Part shown: positions 2,736-23,474 of the stretch, one piece after another
How the letters are laid out: each line of letters begins with the position of its first letter
How positions within the stretch are numbered: the stretch's first letter is position 1
From: an uncultured Candidatus Saccharibacteria bacterium
Lineage (GTDB): Bacteria; Patescibacteriota; Saccharimonadia; Saccharimonadales; UBA10212
Direction of reading: 5' to 3'
Assembly (NCBI GenBank): GCA_965231085.1
Contig: OZ246413.1
Coordinates: 539,234 to 603,233 of the forward strand
DNA: 64,000 nt
Notes under the pieces: model-generated
What the model saw: the letters and a program-made list of their open reading frames with translations, nothing else
The model's database searches: none
What the model was told of the DNA's origin: nothing
Translations under genes and position numbers: made by a program

Positions 2736-3406
2736 TAAATAAACTTCAAGGCCGTAATAACGGCGGCTGATACTACGATATTATCTAGTCCGCGAATACT
2801 CAGATTCTCAAGAACGCTTAGTGCTGGTGGCAATACCAAGAGAATTAATCCATATGTCAGTAAGTTTGGCTGTAGAACGCATAGTAATCCAAAGCCAAGT
2901 ATTAAGAACGAACTTATCCAAAAAGCCATGGTTCCAATAACCGAGCGGGTCTCGCCAAAAATTTTATAGCGCCATCGTTTTCCGTATGCCTGACCAATTA
3001 TTGCTGCCATGCCATCAGCGATTGCCAAATGAAGCACCGCGATCATGAAGAAATATTTATTGTTCGTAAGTAGCGCCGATATGGTAATAGCTAAGGCGAA
3101 AAATAGATCTCCATATGTTTGGCGATTTATGCGCCACGATATTTTAAAAACTCTAACTTCCCTATCTATTAAAACCGTTACGGCCATGGCTAAGCCTATC
3201 AGCTGTATTGTGTGCCAACTAATAAGCCAAGGCCAAAAAGCCGCAAAAATACCAACCGACATATGAATAAACTTTCGATAATACTCGTATCTCAAGACCT
3301 TTTTTCGCCAGAATAATTCACCGACAACCAAGATGATAAAAACGCCGAACAGACAGGTTAATACAGAAAGCATATCCTTAATTCTATACCAATTTGCTAC
3401 AATCAA
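2732..3406 (-). CDS. CTP-dependent polyprenol (dolichol/phytol) kinase / CdsA-family membrane protein
   Basis: Polytopic. [38 protein letters not shown] matches the GDxxAxxxGxxxGK...S/T.xG motif of the cytidylyltransferase/dolichol-kinase family. Confidence 0.55.
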
Positions 3407-4224
3407 TCTATCATATGGCCGCCGAAGAACTTATTTATCATGCTAGAAAAACATCCATTAGCGCCCTTGGTGTTATAAAGCAAAGCTTTTGGGTTATCGG
3501 GCAGCACCCTCAACTATTGCTTTATCCCTACCTTGCTCTAATGTTTGTACTTATAACCTACCCAATAATTAGTGCTAGTTTTATAGCTCATTGGTACGAC
3601 AAAATATTTACCGAGGCGGGCTCGCTAGCCCCCCACCATCTCGGAATTGTTCTTGGGATTGTTGGGTTTTCGGTTTTTTATACCGCCTTTATCTCCGCCT
3701 ATTTTACTACCGCTGTATCGGCAGCCGTATTGGCAACGTTGGAAGGCCGAGAACCGTCAAAGTTGTATGGAATACGCCAGGTCTTTAAACACTTTGGTCG
3801 AGTTACAAAGTTTGGTGTCCTGTCGCTGTTCTTTTTCCCGATGGGTGTATACGCCCAACGCCGCAAACTCCCACGCGGAATGGCTGGGGTCATTGGCAGC
3901 TCTCTGACACTCCACATGGCTCAGATTGCGCCTAGTATTTTAGAGGGCCATCAAAGGTATGGAGCAACTATCAGGGCCGCTGTAGATAAGCTTGGCAAAA
4001 CCTGGAAAGAAGGTCTGGCGCTAAAGATTGGTATGTATATTACAATTTTTATATTTTTTGTAGCTCCAAAATTAGTACAGCATCACTGGTATAAGAGCCA
4101 AACGGCCAGCAACATTGGGTGGCTTCTGAGCCTAGAGCTTGGTGCTTCCGGTATCGTATTCTTTAAAGTGATAAACGCTATTTTCACGACCGTGCTTTAC
4201 CATAAAGCAACAGAAAAGGAATAA
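3394..4224 (+). CDS. Hypothetical polytopic membrane protein
   Basis: 276-aa ORF with several hydrophobic segments, followed by a terminator at 4230-4253. Confidence 0.6.
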   Translation: MLQSIYHMAAEELIYHARKTSISALGVIKQSFWVIGQHPQLLLYPYLALMFVLITYPIISASFIAHWYDKIFTEAGSLAPHHLGIVLGIVGFSVFYTAFISAYFTTAVSAAVLATLEGREPSKLYGIRQVFKHFGRVTKFGVLSLFFFPMGVYAQRRKLPRGMAGVIGSSLTLHMAQIAPSILEGHQRYGATIRAAVDKLGKTWKEGLALKIGMYITIFIFFVAPKLVQHHWYKSQTASNIGWLLSLELGASGIVFFKVINAIFTTVLYHKATEKE

Positions 4225-4229
4225 AAAAT

Positions 4230-4253
4230 GACTCCAAGAATGGAGTCGTTTTT
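4230..4253 (+). terminator. Rho-independent (bidirectional) terminator
   Basis: GACTCCA-agaa-TGGAGTC followed by gttttt, preceded by an A-run. Confidence 0.75.
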
Positions 4254-4276
4254 AATGGTCGGGGATAGAGGACTCG
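4249..4276 (-). repeat. Displaced copy of the tRNA-Pro 3' end (28 nt direct repeat of 4418-4445)
   Basis: tttttaatggtcggggatagaggactcg is identical at 4249-4276 and 4418-4445. It covers the downstream flank, CCA, the acceptor 3' strand and half of the T arm. Confidence 0.9.
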
Positions 4277-4417
4277 CGTTATCGTTCGCCAGCACAAACT
4301 GCAAGCAGTGTGCATGGCGGACAAGCAAGGAAAACTCAAACAGCCATCAGGCTGTTTTCGCCTATCGGTTCGAGTCCTAGCCCAATAATTAAAAATAGAC
4401 CGTCAAAAGACGGTCAA
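4277..4417. other. 141-bp structured insert between the tRNA-Pro 3' fragment and intact tRNA-Pro
   Basis: Long hairpin CGCCAGCACA...TGTGCaTGGCG (4287-4319). Hairpin CAGCC-atca-GGCTG plus tttt (4341-4358). Inverted T-arm-like cgagtcctagccc (4371-4383) pairs with aggactcg (4269-4276). Ends in its own terminator. Confidence 0.5.
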
Positions 4418-4422
4418 TTTTT
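4391..4422 (-). terminator. Rho-independent terminator downstream of tRNA-Pro
   Basis: GACCGTC-aaaa-GACGGTC (4398-4415) flanked by an A-run and a T-run. Confidence 0.75.
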
Positions 4423-4424
4423 AA

Positions 4425-4501
4425 TGGTCGGGGATAGAGGACTCGAACCTCCGACCTCGCGGTCCCAAACCGCGCGCGCTAGCCAACTGCGCCAATCCCC
4501 G
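4425..4501 (-). tRNA. tRNA-Pro (TGG), CCA encoded
   Basis: The reverse complement parses as CGGGGAT-TG-GCGC..GCGC-G-CGCGG-TTTGGGA-CCGCG-AGGTC-GGAGG-TTCGAGT-CCTCT-ATCCCCG-A-CCA. Confidence 0.9.
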
Positions 4502-4548
4502 AGAATTGTCAGGGGTAATTATAGCAAAATATACCTCTGTTGGCGAGG

Positions 4549-22282: not shown

Positions 22283-22360
22283 TCTAGGAATACGACGATT
22301 GCCTTAAGTAAGCACCGAAGCGAGTCCCAGAAACCAGACGAATAAGGGGTCGTTCCTAGA
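22283..22360 (+). promoter_or_regulatory. Structured 5' UTR of the RRM-protein gene
   Basis: Long-range stem tctaggaa-ta-cgac (22283-22296) / gtcgttcctaga (22349-22360) encloses about 50 nt. It ends 32 nt before ATG 22393. Confidence 0.45.
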
Positions 22361-22392
22361 AAATAAGAAAGTAAGGATTTAAAACTCTCAAT

Positions 22393-22671
22393 ATGTACAA
22401 AGTATTTGTAGGTGGTTTGCCTTTTGCAACAACTGACGATGAGCTTCGCGATGCTTTCGCTGCTCATGGTCAAGTTGCTAGCGCTGTAGTAGTTCGCGAC
22501 CGCGAAACTGGCCGCAGCAAAGGCTTCGGATTCGTAGAATTCGAAAATGACGACGAAGGCCGTGCAGCTGAAAAAGCTCTTAACGGTTCTGAGCTCGGTG
22601 GACGCACAATTTCTGTTGCTGAAGCCCGCCCTAAAGAAGATCGTCCACGTGATGATCGCCCTCGTTACTAA
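22393..22671 (+). CDS. RRM-type RNA-binding protein
   Basis: RNP2 KVFVGGL and RNP1 KGFGFVEF motifs, with an R/D/P-rich tail. Confidence 0.9.
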   Translation: MYKVFVGGLPFATTDDELRDAFAAHGQVASAVVVRDRETGRSKGFGFVEFENDDEGRAAEKALNGSELGGRTISVAEARPKEDRPRDDRPRY

Positions 22672-22700
22672 ACCTTAAAAGTTTAGAATCGATAAGAAAA

Positions 22701-22728
22701 CTCCCTGCAACTTAACAGGGAGTTTTTT
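22701..22728 (+). terminator. Rho-independent terminator of the RRM gene
   Basis: CTCCCTG-caacttaa-CAGGGAG followed by tttttt. Confidence 0.8.
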
Positions 22729-22729
22729 G

Positions 22730-22748
22730 TTGGTAGCGGGAGTAGGAC
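22730..22748 (-). repeat. Displaced copy of the tRNA-fMet 3' end (19-nt direct repeat of 22900-22918)
   Basis: ttggtagcgggagtaggac is identical at both sites (CCA, acceptor 3' strand and T-stem 3' strand). Confidence 0.9.
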
Positions 22749-22899
22749 AACGCACGTCTGCGCTCGTTCTCGAAACCAGTTTCTGCGAGCGAGCTTGACG
22801 ACCGATCCTACGACTGTCGCCAGCATAGCTGTCGAGTCGTAGAACCGAGCCTAGTTCACGGCCAAGAAAAATACCCGTCCGAAAGGACGGGCACTTTTC
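22749..22899. other. 151-bp GC-richer structured insert between the tRNA-fMet 3' fragment and intact tRNA-fMet
   Basis: Hairpins CGCTCG...CGAGCG (22761-22790) and CTACGACT...AGTCGTAG (22808-22842). tcctac (22806-22811) pairs with gtagga (22742-22747). Ends in terminator CCCGTCC-gaaa-GGACGGG (22874-22891). Confidence 0.5.
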
Positions 22900-22900
22900 T

Positions 22901-22975
22901 TGGTAGCGGGAGTAGGACTCGAACCTACGACCTCGTGGTTATGAGCCACGCGAGCTGCCACTGCTCCATCCCGCG
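22901..22975 (-). tRNA. Initiator tRNA-fMet (CAT), CCA encoded
   Basis: CGCGGGA-TG-GAGC-AGTGGCA-GCTC-G-CGTGG-CTCATAA-CCACG-AGGTC-GTAGG-TTCGAGT-CCTAC-TCCCGCT-A-CCA. C1xU72 mismatch and an initiator-type D arm. Two of the three initiator G-C pairs are present in the anticodon stem. Confidence 0.8.
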
Positions 22976-23018
22976 TCATATTACCAGTGCCTAATTTTAA
23001 TCTTTTAAGGAGTTAATG

Positions 23019-23474
23019 TCAATCGCTAACTATTTTTCGGCCTAACAAAAAATCGCGCCAAGCTTGCATATTCATAGTGTATTTTGATTTTGACTGAGAG
23101 TTAGTTTTTGTTTGGACGGCCGCGGCCACATCCTGGTTAACATATTTTGCAGCAATTGCATTCGGCACTAATATAACCTTTTCGCCGGGGCCGGCTAGAC
23201 CCAACGATTGGCGGGCAGCCAGATCAAGATACTGGCCGGTGTCATAATATTTGTTTTGGAGTTTTGTATTATCGTTTTGCAGCCGCAAAACTTCGTTTTG
23301 TTGGCTTAATACTGCGATCTTTTTTTGCAGCTCATAATTATCCTGAATGGTTTTTACACCGCTCCAGGCTATAGCTAGAACCATCATAGTAAAAAGGTAG
23401 CTCGGGATATTTTTGGTATCAGTAATCTGCTTGAAATTTTTGCTACTAATAAATTGTCGGGCGCGATAAAGCAT
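23019..23474 (-). CDS. FtsB/DivIC-like septum formation initiator
   Basis: Single TM followed by a leucine-zipper-like coiled coil (LQKKIAVLSQQNEVLRLQNDNTKLQNKY). Confidence 0.5.
   Translation of the reverse strand: MLYRARQFISSKNFKQITDTKNIPSYLFTMMVLAIAWSGVKTIQDNYELQKKIAVLSQQNEVLRLQNDNTKLQNKYYDTGQYLDLAARQSLGLAGPGEKVILVPNAIAAKYVNQDVAAAVQTKTNSQSKSKYTMNMQAWRDFLLGRKIVSD

Follow-up and report, generated by a model that had tools for sequence, protein, structure and literature searches.

Modules resembling tRNA-linked repeats behind the tRNA-fMet and tRNA-Pro genes of an uncultured Candidatus Saccharibacteria bacterium

The tRNA-linked repeats (TLRs) of Escherichia coli, which go back to Egan & Landy 1978 and Rudd 1999 and are cited here as summarised in Stenum et al. 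2021 (PMC8144298), are defined by 18-19 bp that repeat exactly the 3' end of whichever tRNA or rRNA gene lies upstream. According to this summary, E. coli carries 22 of these repeats at ten loci; they have been known since 1978 and, besides three that are linked to rRNA genes, are without known function or origin, an early claim tying the tRNA-linked units to the stringent response having been retracted. At rrnB, the order is 5S-T1-TLR-T2, and a small RNA (sRNA) arises by read-through of T1, with a 3' end 3 nt past the repeat, for which the authors suggested cleavage by RNase E (PMC8144298). For the 178-bp repeat of tyrT-tyrV, known as RtT or rttR (RF00391), which together with repeats behind the 5S genes of rrnA, rrnB and rrnD first revealed this kind of element, we relied on the same paper and on bioRxiv 2024.07.17.603846. 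Here, we describe two modules from a 64,000-nt stretch of DNA of an uncultured Candidatus Saccharibacteria bacterium (assembly GCA_965231085.1, contig OZ246413.1, positions 539,234 to 603,233), referred to below as the window. One lies behind a tRNA-Met(CAT) gene and the other behind a tRNA-Pro(TGG) gene, and both have the defining features of TLRs while standing outside the RtT sequence family.

The sequence TTGGTAGCGGGAGTAGGAC has two exact occurrences in the window, at 22730-22748 and 22900-22918, with an offset of 170 bp and no further match at up to three mismatches; with one mismatch allowed, the repeat grows to 24 nt. It consists of the last 18 nt, plus 1 nt, of a tRNA-Met(CAT) on the minus strand (22901-22975), placed by ARAGORN and by Rfam (RF00005, 62.1 bits), which is probably the initiator tRNA (tRNA-fMet), since a C1 x U72 mismatch can be read in its sequence. 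At tRNA-Pro(TGG), also on the minus strand (4425-4501) and detected by the same two programs, a 28-nt exact repeat was found at 4249-4276 and 4418-4445, made up of the last 21 nt of the tRNA and 7 nt of trailer and spaced by 169 bp. A census of the other four tRNAs of the window revealed no such repeat. Both the 19-nt repeat at a 170-bp offset and the matching architecture at 169 bp had been proposed in a sequence-only reading of this DNA by a model, and both proved exact. In the two window units, the repeats are 141-151 bp apart, and the insert between them, described in that reading as GC-richer, has a GC content of 55.6% at tRNA-fMet as against 44.5% for the window, the Pro insert reaching merely 47.5%. 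Rfam at gathering thresholds reported six tRNAs in the window and nothing else. A chance match or an assembly artefact has virtually no probability and can be regarded as already refuted: two matches to TTGGTAGCGGGAGTAGGAC appeared in 0 of 100 shuffles, a second locus of the window shows the same layout, relatives carry the same units, and independent assemblies of the same strain contain identical sequences (L001 for fMet, L127 for Pro), so that the repeat is not a product of assembly.

Read in tRNA sense, the units follow one order, namely tRNA, proximal terminator, degenerate inverted 3' half of the tRNA with T arm and acceptor strand, one or two variable hairpins, sense piece, terminal copy of the tRNA end, and distal terminator. 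In the fMet unit, where all features except the distal terminator are assigned to the minus strand, repeat copy 1 (22900-22918) runs from the T loop to the CCA and is followed by the proximal terminator (22863-22899), composed of an A-rich trailer, a hairpin at 22874-22891 and the T run TATTTTTCTT; the terminator scan listed this hairpin on the plus strand, and the minus-strand T run was read from the letters. Alignment to the tRNA then revealed an antisense piece, TAGGCTCGGTTCTACGAC (22836-22853), in which T arm and variable region recur inverted and in degenerate form, more clearly so in the related loci L006 (23 of 24 positions) and L009 than in the window, and a sense piece, GTCGTAGGATCGG (22802-22814), comprising the variable region, the 5' strand of the T stem and the start of the T loop. 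On folding, the two pieces pair with each other as hairpin 1 (22802-22847), which has a variable apex; the likeness to the tRNA that had been claimed for 22803-22814 thus holds, the letters being the complement of this sense copy of variable region and T stem. Hairpin 2 (22760-22794), the core conserved in fMet and Arg units, carries the motif CGCAGAAR-N4-YTTCGAR inside a covarying stem and was recognised by motif, covariance model and covariation, our model R1 scoring 68.9 bits at 22743-22814. Repeat copy 2 (22730-22748) forms the 3' end of the unit and is identical to the tRNA 3' end including CCA. The distal terminator (22690-22729, no strand assigned) comprises a hairpin at 22700-22723 plus T runs on both strands and at the same time terminates the convergent gene of an RRM protein (22393-22671), so that the RRM-gene terminator postulated before the distal repeat can be read directly in the letters, without being listed by the scan.

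The Pro unit is likewise read on the minus strand. Repeat copy 1 (4418-4445) is followed by the bidirectional hairpin of the proximal terminator (4398-4415, scan) and by the antisense piece GGGCTAGGACTCGAACC (4367-4383), which, in fold and duplex predictions, pairs with repeat copy 2 (4249-4276) and closes the unit as helix P1. The P1 duplex has a predicted energy of -18.9 kcal/mol, equalled by 0.3% of shuffles, and the whole unit folds into a closed form in which inverted piece and terminal copy are paired (z = -5.6). Between the two strands of P1 lie a conserved core (4322-4366), consisting of GATAGGCGA, hairpin A (4338-4357) and GAGTTTTCCTTGCTTG and defined by alignment and by a second covariance model, R2, and a variable hairpin B followed by GATAACG (4277-4322, alignment and fold). 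This core differs from hairpin 2 and lies earlier in the unit. The distal terminator (4223-4248, no strand assigned, scan) also ends a convergent membrane-protein gene (3394-4224).

In E. coli, the same alignment test at tyrT/tyrV revealed an antisense piece (GGGGAAGGATGAGAAGCTTCGA), a sense piece (AAGGTTCGACTC) and hairpins, together with a terminal copy of 19 nt, and four RtT units were detected at tyrT by Rfam with 133-138 bits as a positive control. Like TLRs, both window units immediately follow a stable-RNA gene and share its orientation, their terminal identity is exact (18 nt plus 1 nt at fMet, 21 nt plus 7 nt at Pro), and the TLR pattern of one to few units per locus and several loci per genome is matched here by two single-unit loci in 64 kb. 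The likeness to RtT extends to the unit length (178 bp as compared with 169-181 bp), to a 19-nt repeat including CCA, and to the antisense 3' half, sense T-arm start and terminal copy. A closing helix P1 of antisense piece and terminal copy, as in the Rfam structure of RtT, is strong in the Pro unit and six others and not significant in the fMet unit of the window, the complementarity between the 5' inverted piece and the terminal copy being matched by at most 4% of shuffles in 7 of 12 units. RtT forms tandem copies, as does the relative L011, unlike the single units of the window; moreover, no intrinsic terminator separates the tRNA from the first RtT unit in E. coli, and the internal hairpins are unrelated. 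A terminator on either side is found instead in the RrA, RrB and RrF sRNAs of rrnA, rrnB and rrnD, where gene, terminator 1, a unit that closes with a copy of the gene's 3' end, and terminator 2 follow each other as they do here, the difference being that the upstream gene encodes 5S rRNA. Those RNAs have GGA motifs and bind CsrA and Hfq in vitro (PMC8144298), features of which no counterpart was noticed in the window units. The TLR class is the best fit to our modules because they end in a copy of the tRNA 3' end, contain the same pieces as tyrT and show the dual terminators of rrnB. Thus, the two modules and their relatives are best filed as new members of the TLRs from a distant phylum, the TLR kind itself being already known.

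Further copies were sought in related genomes. A scan of a genome collection with the 3' 25-mer of tRNA-fMet provided 11 loci, five of them from Saccharibacteria or the Candidate Phyla Radiation (CPR), and RNase Y homologues led to syntenic loci by look-up and to 80 metagenome loci; the Saccharibacteria loci were surveyed by census, BLAST and the models R1 and R2. At tRNA-fMet, the layout and an alignable unit are present in L004, L006, L009 and L011, the last with two to three tandem units, and L010 is empty. Units were also found behind 3 of 13 tRNA-Arg(TCT) genes (L015, L057 and L065) and, counting the window, at 4 of about 55 tRNA-Pro(TGG) loci (the others being L110, L051 and L066). All 13 related units and both window units are oriented in tRNA sense and lie 35-50 nt past the gene, immediately behind its terminator, a second unit in L110 standing behind a decayed tRNA-like end. 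With these copies at three tRNAs, the earlier argument for a common mechanism over chance holds. A metagenome scan with the gapped fMet-unit pattern TTCGAG-N(18-45)-GTCCTACTCCCGCTACCA gave no match, although JGI contigs of relatives exist and the same collection had yielded the 80 Saccharibacteria loci in the protein-guided scan; possible causes are a deviating tRNA-fMet sequence in those lineages or a limit of gapped scanning.

Beyond the parts derived from tRNA, the fMet and Arg units share one core and the Pro units another, which supports the common mechanism proposed earlier. The hairpin-2 motif has eight occurrences in about 1.1 Mb, all behind tRNA-fMet or tRNA-Arg(TCT) in tRNA sense. 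Across the eight sequences, its helix is 90.9% paired and compensatory changes affect 8 of 11 pairs (for example CAGAAG/CTTCGA to CATAAG/CTTAGA); none of 500 shuffles reached this, and slid controls were far lower. The fMet unit can be aligned across genomes whose neighbouring DivIC-like protein is only 30-38% identical, and the Pro core, CGAACCGATAGGCGARAACAGCC...GGCTGTTTGAGTTTTCCTTGCTTGG, with R2 copies in L110 (two), L051 and L066, is 87-90% identical where RNase Y is 74-82% identical. The terminal copy tracks the tRNA-Pro sequence of its own genome (CCTCTATCCCCG, CCTTTCACCCCG, CCTGTC...), and therefore gene conversion or selection would keep the match. In fMet units, TTCGAG on the 3' strand of hairpin 2 stands beside a T loop of TTCGAGT; in one Arg unit, L015, the corresponding letters are TTCGAA and TTCGAAT. 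This may hint that the core, too, derives from the T loop, a hint that is weak because the other Arg units read TTCGAG (L065) and TTAGAG (L057).

A pseudogene kept by chance, formed when the tRNA 3' region was partly duplicated and then decayed without any function, could account for the three segments per unit that derive from the tRNA 3' half, and decay is indeed visible in the terminal repeats of L051, L065, L066 and the second L110 unit as well as in a 30-nt insertion in the terminal repeat of L009. This explanation, offered in the sequence-only reading as one of three options, covers the tRNA-derived pieces and leaves aside the antisense piece, the conserved non-tRNA cores (hairpin 2 in fMet and Arg units; the Pro core) and the compensatory changes. 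Since unit length is also constant (147-181 bp), the flanking terminators recur and E. coli shows the same anatomy, we regard it as very unlikely.

Both occupied and empty sites exist among the relatives, as the suspected site polymorphism would have it, and many of the orthologous sites lack a unit. Close relatives of the window organism, with RNase Y 84-89% identical, have an empty tRNA-Pro site. L015 has an empty tRNA-Pro site, whose terminator is identical to the proximal terminator of the window, its ortholog, at 36 of 43 positions and to the distal one at 27 of 43; the empty fMet site of L010 agrees with the proximal terminator of L009 at 33 of 46 positions and with the distal one at 25 of 50. 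The terminator at 22874-22891, which the scan confirmed beside the intact tRNA, is therefore not the fresh one it had been taken for, as orthologous empty sites carry it too.

These sites bear on a second option of the earlier reading, a small integrating element. According to it, the units would be miniature or remnant site-specific integrative elements whose repeats are the attachment sites attL and attR, generated when an element with its own copy of the tRNA 3' end recombined in the T loop, with about 150 bp left behind or mobilised in trans. At many tRNA attachment sites, the identity block begins in the T loop and reaches the gene end, corresponding to known sublocations of integrases. 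A direct repeat running from the T loop to the gene end is what we observed, and polymorphic occupancy and the tandem array in L011 would suit such an element as well. Yet integration in the T loop predicts that an empty site resembles the distal flank, and the opposite was found, which makes insertion into the tRNA unlikely. In addition, neither an integrase nor any other such open reading frame (ORF) lies in or beside the units, whose neighbours encode the RRM protein, the DivIC-like protein, a membrane protein and a HAD hydrolase. With about 150 bp, the unit is short; its interior is built from pieces of the cognate tRNA in both orientations, and its core is kept with compensatory changes over deep divergence. 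A search of 2.9 million viral contigs with a single hairpin-2 pattern gave 24 matches, all located inside ORFs with no tRNA nearby and therefore due to chance. Altogether, an integrative element appears quite unlikely.

Another reading without any role for RNA sees the units as palindromic DNA repeats of the kind of miniature inverted-repeat transposable elements or repetitive extragenic palindromes, with inverted ends resembling the tRNA end, that would spread or persist as hairpins of the DNA. The inverted ends are long, with up to 14 continuous bp in L051, two copies lie 3 kb apart in L110, and the distribution is patchy. Orientation and position, in contrast, are constant behind the cognate tRNA or a decayed tRNA-like end, the inverted ends show no target-site duplication, no transposase was found, and dispersed copies were absent from about 1 Mb of related sequence. 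The Pro core, furthermore, has many G.U pairs, and its consensus fold is better on the tRNA-sense strand, at -18.65 kcal/mol as compared with -14.32 kcal/mol on the opposite one; its helices contain 14 G.U and no A.C cells, a count that is biased since the fold was predicted on the tRNA-sense strand. A palindromic DNA repeat is hardly probable for these reasons, and an RNA in tRNA sense is favoured.

Of the three options originally offered, a tRNA-linked family of non-coding RNAs fits best, corresponding to the TLR class of E. coli. Taking class and working model jointly, we consider it moderately probable that each module is a TLR unit giving rise to a read-through trailer RNA that is processed at a tRNA-like end. 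Promoter-like sites at both window loci lie upstream of the tRNAs and nowhere else. The one at tRNA-fMet, TTGACA-17 nt-TAAAAT (22994-23022, minus strand), has 11 of 12 consensus matches and is the sole such site in 22300-23100; the one at tRNA-Pro, TCGCCA-17 nt-TG-TATAAT (4518-4546, minus strand), was found by promoter scan, and no promoter was detected between tRNA or proximal terminator and unit when looked for at both loci. The strong tRNA promoter would accordingly serve as the only promoter. By analogy with RrB and RtT of E. coli, some polymerases would pass the proximal terminator and halt at the distal one, and the trailer would fold, its inverted piece joining the terminal tRNA-end copy in P1. 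To 3'-processing enzymes, the terminal copy may then look like the genuine tRNA end, with all of its determinants, and a discrete RNA would result that measures about 130-170 nt, has a tRNA-like ...ACCA terminus and follows tRNA transcription in its level. The conserved core is a likely binding surface for a partner. At the DNA level, the direct repeats would permit gene conversion, keeping the terminal copy identical to the tRNA, and unequal crossing-over, leading to tandem copies.

Several points weigh against this interpretation. The RtT model (gathering threshold 45 bits) matches neither window unit at E <= 10, and the models R1 and R2 give no match at the E. coli loci, so that no sequence homology was found; RtT also fails to match five related loci at E <= 0.1, as well as rrB. 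Given that RtT misses both rrB and the window units, and R1 and R2 miss E. coli, the TLRs are therefore to be understood as a class defined by architecture and not as one sequence family. The two window units have almost nothing in common beyond this architecture; when we carried out the alignment of the two modules that had been asked for, no similarity appeared past the ends. Concerning short words, the Pro unit shares CGATAAC with fMet units, and the shared 9-mer TCGCCAGCA, pointed out before, is real and restricted to positions 4286 and 22817 of the window; alone it is weak evidence, as in 31 of 500 shuffles two equally large inserts have a word of that length in common. The predicted fold of the window's fMet unit does not surpass that of shuffles (z = -1.1), nor does its P1 reach significance. 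The fMet and Arg units fold about equally on both strands, which would also suit a palindromic DNA repeat, and, the strands being equivalent, an RNA in tRNA sense is no more than a candidate at the window fMet unit. Patchy occupancy (about 4 of 55 at Pro, plus a fifth copy by a decayed end, and 3 of 13 at Arg) would fit a mobile or decaying element too. Read-through, processing and any function are what we infer, and the model gives no account of how a first unit arises.

A broader reading, which we consider unlikely, would make TLR-type units a general class of stable-RNA trailers arising repeatedly in distant phyla instead of a peculiarity of E. coli; it has two strong versions. Inverted and split-sense copies of the cognate tRNA, and a terminal copy tracking the tRNA sequence, occur here and in E. 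coli alike, and we found no published explanation for either. In one version, dedicated copying might proceed via the T-arm palindrome, by fold-back or template-switch synthesis or through an unrecognised recombinase or reverse transcriptase. In the other, the RNA might mimic the 3' half of an uncharged tRNA and titrate enzymes or factors that read tRNA ends; if true, tRNA transcription would be coupled to another process. Irrespective of this, the same anatomy behind three different tRNAs in Saccharibacteria means that the phenomenon is not confined to enterobacteria, and independent families with conserved cores supported by covariation are now usable for comparative analysis; it also argues for selection on at least part of the unit. 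Moreover, since such repeats mimic attachment sites, they may be mis-scored in screens for mobile elements or break assemblies. L127, the independent assembly of the same strain, stops inside tRNA-Pro just beyond repeat copy 1, its end corresponding to position 4456 of the window, which suggests that the repeat can break short-read assemblies.

Other candidates for the content of the units were rejected. By eye, a 49-codon ORF can be seen in tRNA sense in the fMet unit and a 24-codon ORF on the plus strand of the Pro unit, neither of which is conserved in relatives. A kink-turn in the internal loop of hairpin 2 does not fit in register. LOOT RNA (RF03000) matched the Pro unit at 4287-4414 on the plus strand, opposite to the tRNA, with 23 bits as against a gathering threshold of 46.4 (E = 0.013); the match is full-length, but just the first hairpin (GCC...GCAUGGC) aligns well. 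Permissive Rfam searches gave no LOOT match in other units, and the remaining permissive matches were terminator-like noise. Exact-protein look-ups with the RRM and VIT1 proteins returned the same strain only.

Some related loci showed peculiarities of their own. In L009 (2120-2170, minus strand), the insertion splitting the terminal tRNA-end copy is a 30-nt palindrome, GTTCGCCTACATAGCTTCAGCGACGTAGGC, that resembles T-stem sequences. The second Pro-type unit of L110 (11830-12010), located 3 kb away from the first and preceded by a degenerate tRNA-like 3' end (...GTTCGACCCGACCCGACCA), sits approximately where other genomes have tRNA-Pro(CGG), and the window genome is also without tRNA-Pro(CGG) at the syntenic position. 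In L105 and L106 (20743-20825), tRNA-Arg(TCT) is followed at once, without a terminator, by 80 nt whose end forms a complete T arm and acceptor strand resembling those of the tRNA. ARAGORN does not call this segment a tRNA, which leaves a pseudo-tRNA or some other type of short unit as its identity. Outside the Saccharibacteria, a contig of a Ruminococcaceae metagenome-assembled genome (CADBNM010000067.1; L005, 2700-3169) carries about 1.3 copies of a 225-bp unit after tRNA-fMet. These units start with a terminator and an inverted T-arm piece (AACGAACCTACGAC) and end in 25 nt of the tRNA 3' end, and such TLR-like anatomy in a genome labelled as Firmicutes may indicate that the phenomenon is widespread. 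A different arrangement was seen in the partly N-masked metagenome-assembled genome of a Bacteroidaceae member (L008, 1340-1950), where a small ORF of about 80 amino acids that, judged by eye, looks like a GIY-YIG nuclease stands between copies of the 3' half of tRNA-fMet, possibly reflecting a nuclease-driven insertion that restores the tRNA end.

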